64,000 nucleotides of DNA from Escherichia coli (GTDB lineage: Bacteria > Pseudomonadota > Gammaproteobacteria > Enterobacterales > Enterobacteriaceae): assembly GCF_011045215.1 (NCBI RefSeq), contig NZ_CP049201.1. One strand, 5' to 3'. Below, in pieces: positions 17,149-61,585 of this stretch (the stretch's first letter is position 1; every line of letters starts with the position of its first letter). Both the position numbers and the translations under genes were made by a program. The notes below the pieces were generated by a model. That model did not search any database and was not told where the DNA came from. It saw only the letters and a program-made list of their open reading frames with translations.

Positions 17149-17736
17149 TTAACTGGTCCAGGTCGCGTCGAACTGTACGCTAACGTCGCCGCTCCAGATG
17201 CCTTCCGGTAGAGTGCTGTAGTCGGTTACTGCGGTGGTACCATTGGTGGTGCCGCTGATGATGGTGAAGGTGAAACCATCCTGTGCAGTGGTACGATTGC
17301 TGGCATTGTAACCGTTAGCCAGCGGGCTAAGGTTGCCGCCCAGTACGCCGTTGGCGGTATCGATCATCACGGTATCGCCAGTTTTTTCGACTGCCGCGCC
17401 GTTATAATCCACGCCCACATTCAGTGTGGAACCTGAGGTATCCAACTGGGTTAATGTGTTGGTGATAAGACGTGAGGTCAGTTTAAAGGCGGTAGCCGTT
17501 GAGTCACCTTCGATAGCCACGTCAAATAGACCTTTCTGTGAGTTAAAACCTTTAATGCCTTCGGCATACTGGAACGCCAGGCTACCGAGTGGCGTCACAA
17601 CCAGCTTACTGGTGGTGTCTTTTTTGGCTGTTGCCGACCAGGTCGCTACAGCCTGAGCTGTTACGTCAGCAGCCTGCGCCACACCCATGCCGGTAAACAC
17701 CGTTACCAGAGCTATTGCCAGAACCTTTTTTTTCAT
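17149..17736 (-). CDS. ecpA: E. coli common pilus major subunit EcpA
   Basis: 195 aa, signal peptide [22 protein letters not shown], Thr/Ser-rich pilin-like sequence. Confidence 0.9.
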
Positions 17737-17810
17737 TGCATTTCTTCCCGAGTTGAATTGAGGACGTGATGTCCCAGTGAGTCATTTTTTAAAACTAACT
17801 TGCCTGGAGT

Positions 17811-19170
<1,360 letters not shown>

Positions 19171-19404
19171 GTGAAAATGCAGGCTGCGCCGCAAAGGGAG
19201 GAGACTGAGTGGCGTGTTCAGTCTAAAAGAGAGTTGATGCCAGCATACAGGGGCGAAGCTGGTCAACAAGTCAACATTAAGATAATGGAATATTCGGAGA
19301 GAAACGTCAGGCAGTTGGCCTCAAATGAACAGGAAGAATATATCCGCAGGAAAATTAATGTTGGTGTTATAAACACACCAACATTAAACCGATCTGATTA
19401 TTAA
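19171..19404 (+). CDS. ykgL: small uncharacterised protein YkgL
   Basis: 77-codon ORF (possibly starting at the second Met) in the position expected for ykgL; no recognisable domain. Confidence 0.4.
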   Translation: MKMQAAPQREETEWRVQSKRELMPAYRGEAGQQVNIKIMEYSERNVRQLASNEQEEYIRRKINVGVINTPTLNRSDY

Positions 19405-40953: not shown

Positions 40954-41059
40954 GAGAGGTATGAAGTCTGGACATAAACCTGAAGAAGGCATACGAGGTT
41001 GAAAATAGCGTTAAGGACAACCTGACTTAACCCCGTTCCGTCATGGTTATGCTCCTCTT

Positions 41060-41100
41060 CTGTAAATATCCTGGCATTAGTAATGCCAGGATATTTACAG
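41060..41100. other. 41-bp near-perfect palindrome between convergent ykgG and ykgH
   Basis: CTGTAAATATCCTGGCATTA-G-TAATGCCAGGATATTTACAG: 20-bp perfectly complementary arms around one central base; no canonical U-tract on either strand. Confidence 0.5.
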
Positions 41101-41195
41101 TGAAAAAGACAGGCATCCATTCCTGAAAACGGGTTCCCTTCCCGGTCATTGTCACTTCAGCTTTATACAGGCACTCTCTATCAGAATGCTGTTTA

Positions 41196-41864
41196 TTACT
41201 GCCCAGAGTTTTGTTGGTATTCATCTACCATTTTTTTGACAAGGCAAAACATTACAGAAATTACAATGCTTATAAAAAATCCCAGAGCTAGGTAAATGGC
41301 AGCAGGGTATTTATTTTTTATTTCTGGTGAGCTTATAGTTACACAGCCATCACCGTTTGGATACAATGACCAGTTCCTGGTCAGGTATATCATTTTTGTA
41401 TAAAGCTCACTGTTAATTGCTGAAGGCGTTTGTATCTCATCGAGAACTTGCCTGCCATTATGGTATTCTGACGCATACCATTTGATAATAGACGCCTGCA
41501 CGTGAGATATTTCCGCTTCAGCAGTTGGTAAATCTCTCTTATCTCCTGACCATTCCAGCTTTATTTCTCTGTTCTTGACATCTGGGCTGGTGTGAAAAAA
41601 TGTAGTAATTCGCTGAATAACATCTTCAGTCATTGTGGTCTGACAGGCAAAGTTATTATTGCTATCACAGTTAACAAGTATACCTGGCGTTGTCTGGTTT
41701 ATTTTTAGGCTGTAAATCACTTTTATATTGTCTTTATTGATATACAGAAACAACAGCACCATAGCCATACATATAGCCATAATAAAAAGGATAACACGAA
41801 TCTTTTTCTTCAGATAAAATAAAATCTCAATCAGATCGATATCCTGTTTGATTTGTTCACTCAT
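41196..41864 (-). CDS. ykgH: inner membrane protein YkgH
   Basis: 222 aa, one N-proximal transmembrane segment followed by a periplasmic domain; position between ykgG and betA. Confidence 0.75.
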   Translation of the reverse strand: MSEQIKQDIDLIEILFYLKKKIRVILFIMAICMAMVLLFLYINKDNIKVIYSLKINQTTPGILVNCDSNNNFACQTTMTEDVIQRITTFFHTSPDVKNREIKLEWSGDKRDLPTAEAEISHVQASIIKWYASEYHNGRQVLDEIQTPSAINSELYTKMIYLTRNWSLYPNGDGCVTISSPEIKNKYPAAIYLALGFFISIVISVMFCLVKKMVDEYQQNSGQ

Positions 41865-42057
41865 AATATATCCAGAAAATAAAATCTGCCGCAGATAAAT
41901 GAATTAATAGTCTGTATCAGGAATGTTCGGGTTAAATATCAGCAAAAAGCCAGCATCATGAATACTGGATATGAAGCATGAGAGTTACCTCAGTGTTTAT
42001 ATAAGGATTCGGCCCCCCTCTCTGGAACGGTAACTCTCAATCTGATCGGTTCCTGCG

Positions 42058-43746
42058 TTAGTTCACATCACGACTCATTTTTTTCGCTCTCACCGGCATC
42101 CCATTTGCCACAAAATATCCCGCCGTGCTCCTCGGCAACGCTTCCTGTCCACGAATCATGTCCGCTATTTTCTCGCCAATCATAATTGTCGTGGCGTTCA
42201 AATTCCCGGTGATAATCTGCGGCATAATTGACGCATCCACCACGCGCAGGCCTTCCAGCCCATGCACGCGGCCTTCGCCGTCAACCACGGACATCTCGTC
42301 GTAGCCCATTTTGCAGGTACCGCACGGATGGAAGGCGGTTTCGGCGTGATTACGCACGAACTCATCGAGCTGCTCATCCGTCTGACATTCCGTGCCGGGG
42401 CTGATTTCGCGGCCACGATACTGATCCAGCGCTGGTTGATGCATGATCTCGCGGGTGATGCGAATTGCGTCGCGGAACTCCTGCCAGTCCTGCTCGTGCG
42501 ACATGTAGTTAAACAGAATCGCCGGATGCTGGTGCGGGTCGCGGGATTTAATCCGCACATGCCCACGGCTTGGCGAGCGCATCGATCCGACGTGGCACTG
42601 GAAGCCGTGCTCTTTCACTGCATTCGAGCCGTTATAGTTAATCGCTACTGGCAGGAAATGGTACTGAATATTCGGCCACGCAAATTCCTCTCGGCTGCGA
42701 ATAAATCCGCCTGCTTCAAAGTGGTTGCTGGCACCAACGCCGGTGCCGCCAAACAGCCACTCCGCACCGATTTTCGGCTGATTCCACCACTGCAGGGCAG
42801 GGTAGAGGGAAACCGGTTCTTTGCACTCATATTGCAGATACATCTCCAGGTGATCCTGAAGATTTTCGCCGACGCCGGGTAAATCATGCACCAGCGGAAT
42901 ATCAAACTCCGCCAGCAGTTCAGCGCTACCCACGCCGGAACGTTGCAGGATCTGCGGAGAGGCGATCGCACCTGCACATAACAGCACCTCTTTATTCGCT
43001 GTCGCGCGGGTTGGAATGGTGCTGTCGCCTTCCTGCCACTCGACGCCCACCGCGCGTTTGCCGTCAAAAATGATGTGATCGGTCATAGCGTGAGTACGAA
43101 TGGTCAGGTTAGGGCGCGATTTGGCCTGATCGAGATAACCGCGCGCGGTACTGGCGCGACGGCCCTGCGGCGTGACGGTGCGATCCATCGGGCCAAAACC
43201 TTCCTGCTGATAGCCGTTGAGATCGTCCGTGCGCGGGTAGCCTGCCTGCACGCCCGCTTCAATCATCGCTTCAAACAGCGGATTGACGCCGGGTTTGGAG
43301 GTGGTGACGCTCACCGGGCCATCACCGCCGTGATAGTCGTTATCACCAATATCGCGCGTCTCGGCCTTGCGATAGTAGGGCAGGCAATCGAGATAGCTCC
43401 AGTTCTCCAGGCCGGGTTCTTTCGCCCAGTTGTCGAGATCCAGCGCGTTGCCACGGATGTAGCACATGCCGTTGATCAGCGACGATCCACCCAGGCCTTT
43501 ACCGCGTCCGCACTCCATGCGGCGGTTATTCATAAACGGTTCAGGTTCCGTTTCATAGGCCCAGTTGTAGCGTTTACCCTGTAGCGGGAATGCCAGGGCA
43601 GCGGGCATCTGGGTGCGGAAGTCAAAGCGATAGTCCGGGCCGCCCGCTTCAAGCAGCAGCACGGAGGTATTCGGATCTTCAGTCAGACGGGTAGCGAGAA
43701 CGTTGCCGGCTGAGCCGGCACCAATAATGATGTAGTCAAATTGCAA
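42058..43746 (-). CDS. betA: choline dehydrogenase (GMC oxidoreductase)
   Basis: GMC flavoprotein; start assigned to TTG at 43744-43746 ([15 protein letters not shown]…) with GGAGG 5 nt upstream, because the ORF-track ATG start lies inside betB. The C-terminus runs 6 codons (MSRDVN) past …VRAKK. Confidence 0.85.
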
Positions 43747-45961: not shown

Positions 45962-47995
45962 ATGACAGACCTTTCACACAGCAGGGAAAAGGACAAAATC
46001 AATCCGGTGGTGTTTTACACCTCCGCCGGACTGATTTTGTTGTTTTCCCTGACAACGATCCTGTTTCGCGACTTCTCGGCCCTGTGGATTGGCCGCACGC
46101 TGGACTGGGTTTCTAAAACCTTCGGTTGGTACTATCTGCTGGCGGCAACGCTCTATATTGTCTTTGTGGTCTGTATCGCTTGTTCGCGTTTTGGTTCGGT
46201 GAAGCTCGGGCCAGAACAATCCAAACCGGAATTCAGCCTGCTGAGTTGGGCGGCGATGCTGTTTGCTGCCGGGATCGGTATCGATCTGATGTTCTTTTCC
46301 GTAGCCGAACCGGTAACGCAGTATATGCAGCCGCCGGAAGGCGCGGGACAGACGATTGAGGCCGCGCGTCAGGCGATGGTCTGGACGCTGTTTCACTACG
46401 GCTTAACCGGCTGGTCGATGTATGCGCTGATGGGCATGGCGCTCGGATACTTTAGCTATCGTTATAATTTGCCGCTCACCATCCGCTCGGCGCTGTACCC
46501 GATCTTCGGTAAACGGATTAACGGGCCGATAGGTCACTCAGTGGATATTGCGGCGGTGATCGGCACTATCTTCGGTATTGCCACTACGCTCGGTATCGGT
46601 GTGGTGCAGCTTAACTATGGCTTGAGCGTACTGTTTGATATTCCCGATTCGATGGCGGCAAAAGCGGCACTGATCGCCTTGTCGGTGATAATCGCCACTA
46701 TCTCGGTGACATCCGGTGTCGATAAGGGCATTCGCGTGTTATCGGAACTTAACGTTGCGCTGGCGCTGGGGCTGATCCTGTTCGTGTTGTTTATGGGCGA
46801 CACTTCGTTCCTGCTTAATGCACTGGTGCTGAATGTTGGCGACTATGTGAATCGCTTTATGGGCATGACGCTCAACAGTTTTGCCTTCGACCGTCCAGTT
46901 GAGTGGATGAATAACTGGACGCTCTTCTTCTGGGCATGGTGGGTGGCATGGTCGCCGTTTGTCGGCTTGTTCCTGGCGCGTATCTCGCGTGGGCGTACCA
47001 TTCGCCAGTTCGTGCTGGGCACGTTGATTATTCCGTTTACCTTCACGCTGTTATGGCTCTCGGTGTTCGGCAATAGCGCGCTGTATGAAATCATCCACGG
47101 CGGCGCGGCATTTGCCGAGGAAGCGATGGTCCATCCGGAGCGCGGCTTCTACAGCCTGCTGGCGCAGTATCCGGCGTTTACCTTTAGCGCCTCTGTCGCC
47201 ACCATTACTGGCCTGCTGTTTTATGTGACCTCGGCGGACTCCGGGGCGCTGGTGCTGGGGAATTTCACCTCGCAGCTTAAAGATATCAACAGCGACGCCC
47301 CCGGCTGGCTGCGCGTCTTCTGGTCGGTGGCGATTGGCCTGCTGACGCTCGGCATGCTGATGACCAACGGGATATCCGCGCTGCAAAACACCACGGTGAT
47401 TATGGGGCTGCCGTTCAGCTTTGTGATCTTCTTCGTGATGGCGGGGTTGTATAAATCTCTGAAGGTAGAAGATTACCGCCGTGAAAGTGCCAACCGCGAT
47501 ACCGCACCGCGACCGCTGGGGCTTCAGGATCGCCTGAGCTGGAAAAAACGTCTCTCGCGCCTGATGAATTATCCGGGCACGCGTTACACTAAACAGATGA
47601 TGGAGACGGTCTGTTACCCGGCAATGGAAGAAGTGGCGCAGGAGTTGCGGTTGCGCGGCGCGTACGTGGAGCTAAAAAGCCTGCCACCGGAAGAGGGACA
47701 GCAGTTGGGTCATCTGGATTTGTTGGTGCATATGGGCGAAGAGCAAAACTTTGTCTATCAGATTTGGCCGCAGCAATATTCGGTGCCGGGCTTTACCTAC
47801 CGCGCACGAAGCGGTAAATCGACCTACTACCGGCTGGAAACCTTCCTGTTAGAAGGCAGCCAGGGCAACGACCTGATGGACTACAGCAAAGAGCAGGTGA
47901 TCACCGATATTCTTGACCAGTACGAGCGGCACCTTAACTTTATTCATCTCCATCGTGAAGCGCCGGGCCATAGCGTGATGTTCCCGGACGCGTGA
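45962..47995 (+). CDS. betT: BCCT-family choline transporter
   Basis: 677 aa, 12 transmembrane BCCT core plus a long hydrophilic C-terminal tail. Confidence 0.9.
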   Translation: MTDLSHSREKDKINPVVFYTSAGLILLFSLTTILFRDFSALWIGRTLDWVSKTFGWYYLLAATLYIVFVVCIACSRFGSVKLGPEQSKPEFSLLSWAAMLFAAGIGIDLMFFSVAEPVTQYMQPPEGAGQTIEAARQAMVWTLFHYGLTGWSMYALMGMALGYFSYRYNLPLTIRSALYPIFGKRINGPIGHSVDIAAVIGTIFGIATTLGIGVVQLNYGLSVLFDIPDSMAAKAALIALSVIIATISVTSGVDKGIRVLSELNVALALGLILFVLFMGDTSFLLNALVLNVGDYVNRFMGMTLNSFAFDRPVEWMNNWTLFFWAWWVAWSPFVGLFLARISRGRTIRQFVLGTLIIPFTFTLLWLSVFGNSALYEIIHGGAAFAEEAMVHPERGFYSLLAQYPAFTFSASVATITGLLFYVTSADSGALVLGNFTSQLKDINSDAPGWLRVFWSVAIGLLTLGMLMTNGISALQNTTVIMGLPFSFVIFFVMAGLYKSLKVEDYRRESANRDTAPRPLGLQDRLSWKKRLSRLMNYPGTRYTKQMMETVCYPAMEEVAQELRLRGAYVELKSLPPEEGQQLGHLDLLVHMGEEQNFVYQIWPQQYSVPGFTYRARSGKSTYYRLETFLLEGSQGNDLMDYSKEQVITDILDQYERHLNFIHLHREAPGHSVMFPDA

Positions 47996-48008
47996 TTGTT
48001 ATTGCATA

Positions 48009-48046
48009 AAACCGCGCCATGTTTGCATATGGCGCGGTTTCTCTTA
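48009..48046 (+). terminator. intrinsic terminator after betT
   Basis: Stem AAACCGCGCCAT / ATGGCGCGGTTT (12 bp) with an 8-nt loop, followed by TCTCTT; 14 nt after the betT stop. Confidence 0.55.
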
Positions 48047-48870
48047 CCTCTTGATACGTTATATCTGTACGGTTAAGCCCTTAGTATCGATTGATGATTG
48101 CCAGGCAACAGATAATAAAAAAGAAAAGAACTATTGAAGCCCAAAACCTACATTTGGACTGTTGTGAATGTTCAATAAGCTTAGTCTTATTTAATGTAAA
48201 TATTGGTGCTAATTTGAAATGACGCTTTATTCATGGGGAACGCGTAGCGCAAATCAACTAAAATCAATGTAACCGTTTGTTGTTTAAGGTTTAATTGTCT
48301 GTGTCTGATATTTTATTGATTGTTTTAAATATTGTTTTTATTGTCATTGTTATAATGTTGGCTATCTATTGCTGAATGGATTCAGTCTTAAAAGGCAGGT
48401 TGTTAAGGGATAGGCATAGAGTAATGACGTGTATGCATAACCAACATCTTTACTCATTATGTCATTGAATGTTGACGCTATGTGTTTATGAGGTTGAGGT
48501 ATTTTCAGTTGATCTGGATTGTTAAATTCATATAATGCGCCTTTACTCATGAGTGGGCATCAATACGTAGTGGGAAATTATAAATATCGAAATAGTCCAA
48601 CTACTTCTTCATTACCAAAAATGAGTATCTGAATTTTAATATTGCATTCTTGCGTGATTATCTCCTGAGTTTGACTTGTGATTACCTTTTTAAGGTATTT
48701 AGCGTAACTGTTTTTGAGCGAGCATCAGAGGTAAAGATAATCTTCTTGATAGTGATGTGGGATGTTATACGTATGGCATCGCTAATGTTTATGGTTACCC
48801 CTTATGTGTGCTCAGGAATCCACAGGTAATCACTCATACTGAACAGCGATAAAAGATAAAAGGTGTGTTC

Positions 48871-49959
48871 ATGAATTCATGTGATTTTCGTGTTTTTCTG
48901 CAAGAGTTCGGTACAACGGTTCATTTGTCATTGCCTGGTAGCGTATCCGAGAAAGAACGACTGCTACTCAAGCTGCTGATGCAGGGAATGTCTGTAACAG
49001 AAATATCACAGTACAGAAATCGCAGTGCAAAGACAATTTCACATCAAAAGAAACAGCTCTTTGAGAAACTGGGGATTCAGAGCGATATTACTTTCTGGCG
49101 CGATATTTTCTTTCAGTACAATCCGGAGATCATATCCGCCACGGGTAGTAATAGTCATAGATATATTAATGATAATCACTATCACCATATCGTCACGCCT
49201 GAAGCCATCAGTCTGGCGTTGGAAGACCACGAATTCAAACCGTGGATCCAACCGGTTTTCTGCGCGCAGACTGGGGTACTGACGGGCTGTGAGGTGCTTG
49301 TCCGCTGGGAACATCCACAAACGGGAATTATCCCACCGGATCAGTTTATTCCTCTGGCGGAGTCATCCGGTCTTATTGTCATAATGACCCGCCAACTGAT
49401 GAAACAGACTGCGGATATTCTGATGCCGGTAAAACATTTGCTGCCGGATAATTTCCATATTGGTATCAACGTCTCGGCGGGTTGTTTTTTGGCCGCGGGA
49501 TTTGAAAAAGAATGCCTGAATCTGGTCAAGAAATTAGGAAACGATAAAATCAAACTGGTTCTCGAGCTAACGGAACGTAACCCTATTCCGGTAACGCCAG
49601 AAGCCAGAGCGATATTTGACAGCCTTCATCAGCACAACATTACCTTTGCGCTGGATGACTTTGGTACGGGTTATGCGACCTATCGTTATCTGCAGGCGTT
49701 TCCGGTCGATTTTATTAAGATCGATAAGTCATTTGTGCAAATGGCGAGTGTCGACGAAATCTCCGGTCATATTGTGGACAATATTGTCGAACTGGCGCGT
49801 AAGCCTGGTCTGAGTATCGTAGCGGAAGGGGTAGAGACCCAGGAGCAGGCGGATTTAATGATCGGTAAAGGCGTTCACTTTTTGCAGGGCTATTTGTACT
49901 CCCCGCCAGTTCCGGGTAATAAATTTATCTCTGAATGGGTAATGAAAGCAGGTGGTTGA
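48871..49959 (+). CDS. pdeL: LuxR-HTH / EAL-domain c-di-GMP phosphodiesterase
   Basis: Start at MNSCDFRVFLQEF…; N-terminal LuxR-type HTH and C-terminal EAL domain (…ELTER…DDFGTGYA…). Formerly yahA. Confidence 0.8.
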   Translation: MNSCDFRVFLQEFGTTVHLSLPGSVSEKERLLLKLLMQGMSVTEISQYRNRSAKTISHQKKQLFEKLGIQSDITFWRDIFFQYNPEIISATGSNSHRYINDNHYHHIVTPEAISLALEDHEFKPWIQPVFCAQTGVLTGCEVLVRWEHPQTGIIPPDQFIPLAESSGLIVIMTRQLMKQTADILMPVKHLLPDNFHIGINVSAGCFLAAGFEKECLNLVKKLGNDKIKLVLELTERNPIPVTPEARAIFDSLHQHNITFALDDFGTGYATYRYLQAFPVDFIKIDKSFVQMASVDEISGHIVDNIVELARKPGLSIVAEGVETQEQADLMIGKGVHFLQGYLYSPPVPGNKFISEWVMKAGG

Positions 49960-59477: not shown

Positions 59478-60527
59478 ATGAAGATCAAAGCTGTTGGTGC
59501 ATATTCCGCTAAACAACCACTTGAACCGATGGATATCACCCGGCGTGAACCGGGACCGAATGATGTCAAAATCGAAATCGCTTACTGTGGCGTCTGCCAT
59601 TCCGATCTCCACCAGGTCCGTTCCGAGTGGGCGGGGACGGTTTATCCCTGCGTGCCGGGTCATGAAATTGTGGGGCGTGTGGTAGCCGTTGGTGATCAGG
59701 TAAAAAAATATGCGCCGGGCGATCTGGTCGGTGTCGGCTGCATTGTCGACAGTTGTAAACATTGCGAAGAGTGTGAAGACGGGCTGGAAAACTACTGTGA
59801 TCACATGACCGGCACCTATAACTCGCCGACGCCGGACGAACCGGGCCATACTCTGGGCGGCTACTCACAACAGATCGTCGTTCATGAGCGATATGTTCTG
59901 CGTATTCGTCACCCGCAAGAGCAGCTGGCGGCGGTGGCTCCTTTGTTGTGTGCAGGGATCACCACGTATTCGCCGCTACGTCACTGGCAGGCCGGACCGG
60001 GTAAAAAAGTGGGCGTGGTCGGCATCGGCGGTCTGGGACATATGGGGATCAAGCTGGCCCACGCGATGGGGGCGCATGTGGTGGCATTTACCACTTCTGA
60101 GTCAAAACGCGAAGCGGCAAAAGCCCTGGGGGCCGATGAAGTTGTTAACTCACGCAATGCCGATGAGATGGCGGCTCATGTGAAGAGTTTCGATTTCATT
60201 TTGAATACAGTAGCTGCGCCACATAATCTCGACGATTTTACCACCTTGCTGAAGCGTGATGGCACCATGACGCTGGTTGGTGCGCCTGCGACACCGCATA
60301 AATCGCCGGAAGTTTTCAACCTGATCATGAAACGCCGTGCGATAGCCGGTTCTATGATTGGCGGCATTCCAGAAACTCAGGAGATGCTCGATTTTTGCGC
60401 CGAACATGGCATCGTGGCTGATATAGAGATGATTCGGGCCGATCAAATTAATGAAGCCTATGAGCGAATGCTGCGTGGTGATGTGAAATATCGTTTTGTT
60501 ATCGATAATCGCACACTAACAGACTGA
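59478..60527 (+). CDS. yahK: NADPH-dependent zinc alcohol dehydrogenase-type aldehyde reductase
   Basis: 349 aa; catalytic and structural zinc ligands (GVCHSDLH, CKHCEECEDGLENYC); nucleotide-binding motif GVVGIGGLGHMG. Confidence 0.85.
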   Translation: MKIKAVGAYSAKQPLEPMDITRREPGPNDVKIEIAYCGVCHSDLHQVRSEWAGTVYPCVPGHEIVGRVVAVGDQVKKYAPGDLVGVGCIVDSCKHCEECEDGLENYCDHMTGTYNSPTPDEPGHTLGGYSQQIVVHERYVLRIRHPQEQLAAVAPLLCAGITTYSPLRHWQAGPGKKVGVVGIGGLGHMGIKLAHAMGAHVVAFTTSESKREAAKALGADEVVNSRNADEMAAHVKSFDFILNTVAAPHNLDDFTTLLKRDGTMTLVGAPATPHKSPEVFNLIMKRRAIAGSMIGGIPETQEMLDFCAEHGIVADIEMIRADQINEAYERMLRGDVKYRFVIDNRTLTD

Positions 60528-60769
60528 AAAAATTAATAAATACGTTGTGGTTTAACATATTAACTTCGCTCTCCACTTAACTTTTTAGTTAAGGAGAGCG
60601 AAATAATATCAAAGTAGCAGTAAAACCTATAACGTAAATTCAAATTGTTAAATTAACTCCCTCCAGTACACAATACTTCACACGTTAGTTATGAGCGATT
60701 TCTGATAGTGCCTGGTTTAATCAGAGCTTTATTATCTGCGACGTTTATTTTTATTTAAGAGAGATCGCG

Positions 60770-61585
60770 ATGATATCATTAAAAGCTCCGCACAATAATT
60801 TGATGCCATATACGCAACAAAGCATACTTAATACGGTTAAAAACAATCAGTTACCAGAGGATATCAAAAGCTCCCTGGTTTCCTGTGTCGATATATTCAA
60901 GGTTTTGATTAAACAATATTATGATTATCCTTATGATTGTCGTGATGATTTAGTCGATGACGACAAACTCATTCATCTCATGGCTGCCGTACGAGACTGT
61001 GAGTGGTCAGACGATAACGCACTCACCATAAATGTGCAGTTTAATGATTTCCCTGGATTTTATGACTGGATGGATTACCCTGATCACCCGGTTAAGTTTG
61101 TTTTTCGCATACTTGAAAATCAAAAAGGGACAGTTTGGGTATATGACCAGGATGATGCGTTTCTTGATATTAAAGCAAATGTGCAGGCTGGACGCTTTAC
61201 CGGGCTTAAGAAATTAGTGCAGTTTATCGATTCAGTGCGAACAGATTGCAAATGTATTCTTCTTGAACACCATATGCCTTTGCTGAGAATTTTCCCTAAA
61301 GGGAAAGAGTGTATGCATGTGGAAAAATGGCTTCGCGAAATGTCGTCTATTCCGGAGACAGACGCGCCCATTAAGCAGGCGCTTGCGCATGGATTATTAT
61401 TACACTTAAAAAATATCTACCCTGTTTTTCCTGAATCACTGGTGATGTTATTGCTCTCTGTTCTGGACGTAAAAACATACAGAGATGATGCGCGATTAAA
61501 TCAATGGATATCTAATAGAGTCCAGGAATTAGGTGACAGATATTATCCTGTAAATAAGCACGTTAAAATCCGCTACACTCTTTAG
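60770..61585 (+). CDS. yahL: uncharacterised protein YahL
   Basis: 271 aa ORF with no recognisable domain; position between yahK and yahM. Confidence 0.6.
   Translation: MISLKAPHNNLMPYTQQSILNTVKNNQLPEDIKSSLVSCVDIFKVLIKQYYDYPYDCRDDLVDDDKLIHLMAAVRDCEWSDDNALTINVQFNDFPGFYDWMDYPDHPVKFVFRILENQKGTVWVYDQDDAFLDIKANVQAGRFTGLKKLVQFIDSVRTDCKCILLEHHMPLLRIFPKGKECMHVEKWLREMSSIPETDAPIKQALAHGLLLHLKNIYPVFPESLVMLLLSVLDVKTYRDDARLNQWISNRVQELGDRYYPVNKHVKIRYTL

Follow-up and report, generated by a model that had tools for sequence, protein, structure and literature searches.

The betT-pdeL spacer of an Escherichia coli chromosome: elements of the pdeL switch, their conservation among alleles, and an ehaA-type arrangement of the same locus

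The betT-pdeL locus

The window, i.e. the whole 64-kb stretch of E. coli DNA analyzed here, contains the gene order betB, betI (minus strand), betT, spacer, pdeL, yahB and yahC. This order was confirmed by the RefSeq annotation of near-identical E. coli chromosomes. The features that delimit the spacer are as follows.

45962-47995: betT, with its TGA stop codon at 47993-47995
47996-48870: the betT-pdeL spacer, 875 bp
48009-48048, plus strand: credible intrinsic terminator of betT, whose perfect 12-bp stem (48009-48020 / 48029-48040) leads into a partly T-rich tail
48871-49959, plus strand: pdeL (yahA), encoding a LuxR-type HTH plus EAL c-di-GMP phosphodiesterase, both the regulated gene and its own regulator; annotated ATG at 48871

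An initial annotation had placed about 870 bp of AT-rich DNA, containing only short ORFs, between the betT terminator and pdeL, and had interpreted it as a probably silenced, multi-input control region of a phosphodiesterase that is itself a transcription factor. The physical part of this description proved accurate. The spacer has a GC content of 34.9%, compared with 49.7% for the whole window; among all 875-bp windows of the 64 kb, just 0.5% are equally AT-rich. The hairpin downstream of betT, which was missed by a simple terminator scan and recovered by folding, has a predicted RNA folding energy of -22.7 kcal/mol (z = -4.45, with none of 200 shuffled sequences as stable) and is a credible betT terminator. 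Beyond it, a search of the spacer for repeats gave only short, weak pairs. Eleven ORFs, of 26-62 aa and on both strands, overlap the spacer. The dual nature of PdeL was likewise confirmed by Pfam matches to the EAL (6.5e-61) and GerE (1.2e-07) domains.

As judged by megablast, the spacer is present in 3841 of 5426 complete E. coli genomes (~71%), and pdeL is present in 5162 of the 5426. Three genomes carry insertions in this region: IS1 at 48424-48431 in one, IS1 at about 48609-48623 in another, and ISEcp1-blaCTX-M-15, which truncates the spacer at 48487, in a third. Natural insertions of this kind fit an AT-rich, silenced promoter region.

Elements of the pdeL switch and their conservation

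The betT-pdeL region of K-12, or P_pdeL switch, was reportedly studied by Reinders et al. in 2016 and by Yilmaz and Schnetz. In K-12, PdeL binds two sites upstream of its promoter: a proximal Cra-dependent PdeL box (CDB), which overlaps a Cra box and needs Cra, and a distal Cra-independent PdeL box (CIB), a palindrome that is bound by H-NS too (Reinders et al., bioRxiv 10.1101/2021.10.01.462762). Cra and PdeL are co-activators that aid the recruitment of RNA polymerase, c-di-GMP converts active PdeL tetramers into inactive dimers, and derepression of pdeL in an hns mutant is strong (bioRxiv 10.1101/2021.10.01.462762); H-NS repression of pdeL has also been stated elsewhere (10.1101/2022.01.19.477023). 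Expression of K-12 pdeL is cooperative, hysteretic and bimodal, and mutations of the CIB, the CDB or the Cra box change expression and abolish cooperativity; IHF and Fis sites were reported between the two PdeL boxes from K-12 ChIP data (bioRxiv 10.1101/2021.10.01.462762). Using the primer tables of the same study (bioRxiv 10.1101/2021.10.01.462762) to recover positions, the following elements were located in the window.

48174-48191: CIB, the distal Cra-independent PdeL box, a palindrome AATAAG-N6-CTTATT
48206-48275: divergent patch, the stretch most divergent between E. coli alleles, situated between the PdeL boxes where the literature puts the IHF/Fis sites
48371-48386: candidate Cra (FruR) box, GCTGAATGGATTCAGT, a palindrome with 4 central mismatches to GCTGAAACGTTTCAGC
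48375-48392: putative CDB, the Cra-dependent PdeL box, AATGGATTCAGTCTTAAA (the K-12 sequence ends ...AAT), overlapping the right half of the Cra box
48509-48536, plus strand: pdeL core promoter, with -35 TTGATC (48509-48514), a 16-nt spacer and -10 TATAAT (48531-48536)

The published CIB EMSA fragment (primers 4991/4997) corresponds to 48161-48229 of the window, and the legend to this fragment (10 bp trimmed upstream and 33 bp downstream) puts the CIB at about 48171-48196. This interval contains AATAAG-N6-CTTATT, the only perfect match to this pattern in the 64-kb window; the left half of the CIB is overlapped by a published H-NS site (bioRxiv 10.1101/2021.10.01.462762). The Cra box, a candidate by its sequence and the sole such site within 47901-49000, is identical to the K-12 box present on the CB/CDB EMSA oligo 4695 and altered in the CB- mutant, in which primer 5030 scrambles GCTGAATGGATTCAG (48371-48385). 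Alignment of the CIB to the CDB region gives the 18-mer AATGGATTCAGTCTTAA(T/A) at 48375-48392, the K-12 CDB matching the CIB at 13 of 18 positions, and from this alignment we infer the limits of the CDB. The placement agrees with the published CDB- mutation (primer 5028), which scrambles CTTAATGAGTGGG, 13 nt just 3' of the Cra box. Within the limits so deduced the window matches K-12 at 17 of 18 positions; 3' of 48392 the two differ at about 5 of the 13 positions of the CDB- stretch.

The string TTGATC-16-TATAAT is the best sigma-70 match in the region (10/12). An identical promoter string was given for betT>yahA, with an H-NS flag, in the RpoD genomic SELEX of Shimada et al. (PMC3946193), and the published RNA polymerase recruitment fragment (primer 4283) ends just past TATAAT. 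Judging from the consensus match and the design of the published fragments, transcription of pdeL would start at about 48543. Two more promoter-like sites were seen, one at 48714-48741 and one on the minus strand at 48347-48319, and in-vitro run-off arrays have yielded transcripts from the betT-pdeL spacer on both strands (PMC3141248). Motif searches were less informative for the nucleoid proteins: the H-NS high-affinity motif TCGATAAATT, with up to 2 mismatches, was not enriched (76 matches in the window, 2 of them in the spacer, vs 74.7 expected in the window), and the IHF consensus WATCAANNNNTTR had no match in the spacer.

The window and K-12-like spacers are 93.1% identical, with 60 substitutions and 1 indel. 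Their divergence of 6.9% compares with 0.9% for betT and 1.9% for pdeL (3.7% and 7.9%, respectively, at synonymous sites), and the differences cluster in 48180-48570. Between these two alleles, 48181-48440 differs at 11-15% of positions (14.2% over the 120 bp from 48181 to 48300), compared with 2.9% in the promoter block at 48441-48545. The first ~130 bp past the terminator (48041-48170) also diverge fast. Over the E. coli alleles as a whole, variable sites amount to about 15% of 48021-48570 and about 3% of 48571-48870; one allele, L002, combines a window-like left part with a K-12-like right part and is thus a recombinant. Two sister-clade loci, L004 (Escherichia sp. E1V33) and L005, were used as more distant references. 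Their pdeL genes show 17-27% synonymous divergence and the distal half of their spacers is 33-42% diverged; the L005 spacer gave no match to E. coli genomes by megablast.

Several short blocks stand out from this background. The half-sites of the CIB do not vary among 12 E. coli alleles and both sister-clade loci, and the CIB is identical to the sister-clade sequences at 27 of 28 and 24 of 28 positions, compared with 58-66% identity in its flanks. Almost all E. coli alleles, and L005, have an identical Cra box, of which 15-17 of 18 positions are conserved in comparisons with the sister clades, and the promoter retains 41-42 of 46 positions. Conserved blocks across strains, proposed at the outset as a check on a control region, are therefore found as islands at the CIB, the Cra box, the core promoter and the leader described below, and such islands amid fast-diverging DNA are what a two-box, Cra-gated model predicts.

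The window allele thus resembles K-12 P_pdeL in its locus, flanks, element order and the position of the small ORF yahV, with identical CIB half-sites, Cra box and promoter hexamers and a leader diverged by about 1.4%. It is unlike K-12 in i) having C instead of T in the spacer of the CIB, ii) differing at the last CDB base and several bases 3' of it, and iii) lacking a second GATC that K-12 has next to the CIB. In the window allele the same switch elements occur in the correct order and have been selectively conserved. Their selective retention in an allele diverged by 7%, and in the sister clades, is independent evolutionary support for the two-box model.

Taken together, it is very probable that the spacer is the cis-regulatory region of pdeL, an H-NS-silenced switch activated by Cra and PdeL through two boxes. 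In this model, pdeL would be transcribed from the sigma-70 promoter TTGATC-16-TATAAT, about 330 nt upstream of its ATG, and the AT-rich DNA of the spacer would be coated and silenced by H-NS. Binding of Cra to its own box, about 165 bp upstream of the start site, would allow PdeL to occupy the overlapping proximal box, and the distal palindrome, lying another 200 bp or so upstream, would be bound by a second PdeL dimer. When c-di-GMP is low, the dimers would associate into a tetramer, probably looping the intervening DNA, a segment in which the yahV ORF would lie; the tetramer would then displace H-NS and recruit RNA polymerase. The expected outcome is positive autoregulation together with a bistable (ON/OFF) c-di-GMP regime, for which carbon flux acts as the gate via Cra. 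The looping, and an equal function of the slightly different proximal box of the window, are presumed. The words "probably silenced" in the initial annotation agree with the H-NS repression published for the K-12 allele (bioRxiv 10.1101/2021.10.01.462762; 10.1101/2022.01.19.477023), and its "multi-input" character with the co-activation by Cra and PdeL and the c-di-GMP input via PdeL, also published for K-12, whose elements are those located here.

The pdeL leader, the spacer GATC and yahV

A promoter at 48509-48536 implies that the pdeL transcript has a 5' leader of about 327 nt.

48543-48870, plus strand: predicted pdeL 5' leader, about 327 nt, ending in the Shine-Dalgarno sequence AAGGTG (48860-48865)

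Within E. coli, 48576-48870 is diverged by 1.4% (4/294), compared with 7.9% at the synonymous sites of pdeL (19/241), i.e. the leader is 5-6 times less diverged. It is found in 3775 genomes, the full-length matches listed being at least 97.7% identical, and no paralogue elsewhere in the E. coli genomes was found among these 3775. The last 100 nt (48771-48870) are the best-conserved part, with 90-92 of 100 positions identical in the sister clades despite their synonymous divergence of 17-27%. Such conservation could mean that the leader acts in cis as a regulatory RNA, be it a riboswitch, a thermometer or a target of an sRNA or CsrA, and adds a post-transcriptional input, and a long imperfect hairpin at about 48709-48820 is indeed predicted in all the sequences compared. 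However, Rfam gave no match at E <= 1 over 47700-49200 on either strand, and the folding energy of the leader is unexceptional (z = -1.27; 12 of 100 shuffled sequences fold as stably). Compensatory changes are seen in just 2 of 92 consensus pairs, and in the sister clades the first half of the leader has accommodated a 24-nt deletion and a 10-nt insertion. The conservation could be accounted for just as well at the DNA level, for instance by a downstream H-NS nucleation site, by a second promoter (48714-48741), or by a tract of recent recombination that the leader shares with pdeL. The conservation is real, and a post-transcriptional element, a downstream H-NS site and a second promoter are all possible sources of it; a regulatory RNA as such seems unlikely, at perhaps one chance among several.

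The sole GATC of the 875-bp spacer (48511-48514) lies inside the -35 hexamer TTGATC. Dam methylation of this site could add an epigenetic layer to the ON/OFF switch, as in the phase variation of pap or agn43. Consistent with this, yahA/pdeL of K-12 is among the most reduced transcripts in a dam mutant (log2FC -3.08, eight-fold) and is unchanged in a dcm mutant (PMC11741368). However, pdeL is absent from that paper's candidates for local methylation control (PMC11741368), and the dam effect may arise indirectly, from induction of the SOS response, from a change in c-di-GMP or from the bistable loop having flipped. The site is also not retained, since the sister clades and the ehaA-type promoter (see below) have TTGATT and hence no GATC, and the pdeL promoter has no known site for OxyR or Lrp, the methylation-sensitive regulators. 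Control by Dam at this position is thus improbable.

One small ORF in the spacer has been catalogued as a gene.

48301-48375, plus strand: yahV (b4730), 24 codons from a GTG start, or 26 from a TTG two codons upstream (48295)

The 24-aa K-12 protein, VCDILLNVLNIVFIGIAIILVIIC, was detected by chromosomal SPA tagging and immunoblotting (PMC6001520), and this sequence is exactly the product of a K-12-like locus (L001). RefSeq places "protein YahV" at exactly the syntenic position in K-12-like genomes, and 48301-48375 aligns codon for codon with that CDS, in the same frame and with the same start and stop. The window product, VSDILLIVLNIVFIVIVIMLAIYC, is identical to that of K-12 at 17 of 24 residues and differs at 7; it is hydrophobic and single-helix-like, and the stop codon of its gene is inside the Cra box. 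RefSeq uses the name "protein YahV" only for the K-12 sequence, gives "hypothetical protein" for intermediate alleles and has no entry in window-like genomes. Part, at least, of the lineage restriction described for yahV (PMC9976479) therefore stems from names being assigned by exact sequence.

It is conceivable that yahV encodes a functional 24-aa membrane protein, for which a link to osmotic stress or motility has been proposed (PMC9976479), and that the spacer is in part its gene and promoter. Besides the detection of YahV-SPA in K-12 and the published guess at its function, this is favoured by an ORF that is open in all 12 E. coli alleles examined (in one of them a codon shorter) and by an AAGG 5-11 nt upstream of the TTG and GTG starts. 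The pattern of substitution speaks against it: about 12 of 13 changes among the 12 alleles are missense or nonsense and 1 is synonymous, which is consistent with neutral evolution (P = 0.18), while omega <= 0.2 is rejected (P <= 2e-4). Moreover, frameshifts or stops break the ORF in L004 and L005, two loci that do conserve the CIB and the Cra box on either side of it, so that neither purifying selection among the 12 E. coli alleles nor conservation in the two sister-clade loci was found. No promoter-like site was found upstream on the plus strand, no NCBIfam or Pfam model matches, and hydrophobic peptides are the default output of T-rich DNA. A functional YahV is accordingly rather improbable; yahV is most likely an evolutionarily young translated ORF, its translation shown for the K-12 allele, and not a constrained gene.

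AcrZ and MgtS are well-supported small hydrophobic proteins of E. coli. YahV resembles the VanOrsdel 2018 set, small hydrophobic E. coli proteins identified by tagging or ribosome profiling, in its length of 24 aa, its single predicted helix, its intergenic position and its detection only by tagging, and is unlike AcrZ and MgtS in showing no amino-acid constraint, being confined to E. coli proper and overlapping a transcription-factor site. The case cautions against published functional guesses, and against pangenome presence/absence calls that reflect exact-sequence annotation. The other small ORFs, at 48376-48468, 48519-48632, 48650-48829 and 48757-48852 on the plus strand and at 48362-48550 on the minus strand, were rejected as genes because each is interrupted by stops or frameshifts in other alleles or sister clades. 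The initial annotation's term "non-coding" is therefore too strong with yahV catalogued inside the spacer, although it holds in the sense that yahV shows no constraint at the protein level.

The last alternative, in which only the core promoter has a function and the rest of the spacer is AT-rich filler, left over from horizontally acquired or decayed DNA, coated by H-NS by chance and of a length without regulatory meaning, could account for i) the divergence of most of 48041-48440, which outpaces synonymous sites (13-15% among E. coli alleles and 33-42% relative to the sister clades), ii) the absence of any detectable coding relic of ehaA or another gene, iii) the IS insertions without apparent harm and iv) the about 26% of genomes that do without the segment, but it is very improbable, as discrete islands (CIB, Cra box, promoter and leader) escape the decay and the published CIB, CDB and Cra box mutants contradict it for K-12. 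What does follow from these ~26% of complete E. coli genomes, which run pdeL without the spacer, is that the spacer is dispensable for pdeL function.

The ehaA-type arrangement and comparison with known promoters

In these other genomes the locus reads betT - 572 bp - ehaA (an autotransporter adhesin of 1327 aa) - 141 bp - pdeL. The 572-bp region was found in 1402 genomes, about 26% of the complete E. coli genomes, and the ehaA type includes many STEC-like and other E. coli as well as E. whittamii and E. albertii. The betT terminator is the only part of the window spacer found at high identity in ehaA-type genomes and E. whittamii. Like the window spacer, the region upstream of ehaA contains this terminator and a Cra box (AGCTGAATGGATTCAGTC), here followed 32 bp downstream by a PdeL-box-like palindrome, AATAAGACGATTCTTATA. 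It also has a promoter, TTGATT-16-TATAATGCGC, with flanks shared with the window promoter (TATTTTGAGTTGATT...CATATAATGCGC). The local alignment of the two promoters scores 24, a value reached by none of 500 shuffles (15.4 +/- 2.1), and Cra box and promoter are colinear in both types, 131 vs 133 bp apart.

Outside this module little is shared. No homology to the ehaA type was detectable for the CIB-bearing distal part, yahV or the 300-nt leader; the window-type leader and distal part, compared with the ehaA leader, the ehaA-pdeL spacer and the distal part of the other type, gave scores equal to those of shuffles. A tblastn search for an EhaA coding relic in the window spacer gave nothing better than E = 0.14. 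The 141-bp ehaA-pdeL spacer contains a strong hairpin, and no promoter-like site was found in it. The Shine-Dalgarno sequence and start of pdeL are the same in both types; divergence of the gene itself is about 20% in the first ~330 nt, the part for the HTH domain, and 1-3% in the remainder, and at the protein level neither the EAL domain nor the HTH recognition helix differs.

The ehaA type is thus unlike the window in that the Cra/promoter module is situated upstream of ehaA and not of pdeL. The most economical interpretation is that a single regulatory module controls ehaA in one allele, perhaps reaching pdeL by read-through, and acts directly on pdeL in the other. Loci of the E. whittamii type consist of ykgEFG, a relic of the betT 3'-end with its terminator, the ehaA upstream region (82.6% identical), ehaA and pdeL; in E. 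albertii the autotransporter that follows the same promoter is truncated (an exact-protein look-up of its PdeL found no record); and L004 and L005 have ykgG - spacer - pdeL without ehaA. This outgroup distribution mildly favours the ehaA arrangement as ancestral. A tentative scenario, which we consider to have a little less than an even chance of being correct, is that an ancestral Cra/PdeL-responsive promoter drove ehaA with pdeL behind it, and that loss of ehaA in the window/K-12 lineage left the module driving pdeL, thereby creating the autoregulatory loop.

If this were so, the K-12 switch would be a strain-specific rewiring, and PdeL and Cra would control an adhesin in ehaA-type strains. 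The position of a c-di-GMP-sensing regulator beside an adhesin gene points to a possible regulatory link. No literature linking ehaA with pdeL or yahA was found, which, given the limited journal coverage of the search, is weak evidence of novelty. Since the control region is dimorphic in the species, what has been concluded from K-12 about bistable control of c-di-GMP may not apply to many pathogenic lineages. The dimorphism is the only lead that goes past the literature; it is modest and concerns the locus across strains, not any unusual trait of the window. As a control region of pdeL the spacer is already known, among the better-characterised E. coli promoters, and the interpretation given in the initial annotation adds nothing beyond what has been published.

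The promoters of bgl, proU, csgD, LEE1/Ler and hilA are silenced by H-NS and relieved by a specific anti-silencer. The pdeL promoter resembles these in having AT-rich DNA on both sides, in an activator that acts largely by displacing H-NS, and in being a target of natural IS insertions. It is unlike them in that the anti-silencer is the gene's own product, an enzyme with an oligomeric state that depends on its substrate, c-di-GMP, and this combination makes the pdeL promoter a self-reinforcing digital switch.

Mosaic spacer alleles and the ehaA-type arrangement

Comparison of window positions 48040-48570 with a K-12-like spacer allele (L001) and another E. coli allele (L002) showed that the betT-pdeL spacer alleles are mosaics, with L002 resembling the window to about 48340 and K-12 from about 48350. 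Divergence at 48181-48440 amounts to 11-15%, which is 2-4 fold above the local synonymous divergence. In 1402 of the 5426 complete E. coli genomes (~26%), the arrangement betT - 572 bp - ehaA - 141 bp - pdeL stands in place of the 875-bp spacer, as in the following locus:

L050:3293-9078 (E. coli STEC316), ehaA-type locus, compared with window 47996-49959

Upstream of its ehaA are a Cra box and a TTGAT(C/T)-16-TATAATGCGC promoter, both as in the spacer and at essentially equal spacing (131 and 133 bp in ehaA-type and spacer-type alleles, respectively), as well as a PdeL-box-like palindrome.

In E. whittamii-type genomes (L061:2941-3865), ykgG is followed on its 3' side by a betT remnant (the last ~30 nt) and the betT terminator, and then by the ehaA upstream region. 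From this remnant and terminator downstream of ykgG it follows that the E. whittamii-type lineage lost the bet operon by deletion and that E. coli did not gain it by insertion.

Allele classes and start codon of pdeL

Two pdeL allele classes were found (window 48871-49200 versus L050:7990-8320), which differ by ~20% in the first ~330 nt, encoding the HTH domain, but by just 1-3% beyond; the EAL-domain protein is identical between them. This drop in divergence after the HTH part implies that an old recombination boundary lies in the HTH-EAL linker.

With a mechanical ORF call, the start of pdeL falls on GTG 48865 (364 aa), whereas RefSeq starts it at ATG 48871 (362 aa), for which the Shine-Dalgarno sequence AAGGTG (48860-48865) is better spaced. 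Escherichia-type pdeL sequences were also detected in a 385-bp Stappia sp. contig (L008, 99% identity) and a Collinsella MAG contig (L013, 82% identity), both almost certainly contaminating contigs of their public assemblies.

Insertions into the spacer

In clinical isolates, the silenced AT-rich spacer is a target for mobile-element insertion. Among three interrupted E. coli loci (L058, L059 and L060), natural IS1 insertions separate the Cra box from the promoter (48424-48431) or interrupt the leader (~48609-48623), and an ISEcp1-blaCTX-M-15 unit cuts the spacer short at 48487, just upstream of the -35 hexamer.

GC content over 875 bp is also below 38% in four further stretches of the window (~1-1140, ~17690-19200, ~40970-42130 and ~60310-61450), with AT content near 18066 slightly above that of the spacer.

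Promoter and promoter-like sequences of the spacer

One promoter-like site lies inside yahV, directed away from pdeL:

48347-48319, minus strand, promoter-like site ATGACA-17-AACAAT

An opposite-direction transcript from the betT-pdeL spacer was reported in an in-vitro run-off array (PMC3141248). The sole GATC of the spacer (48511-48514) falls within the -35 hexamer, which in sister clades and in the ehaA-type promoter reads TTGATT, without GATC. By RNA-seq, pdeL was eight-fold lower in a K-12 dam mutant (PMC11741368).
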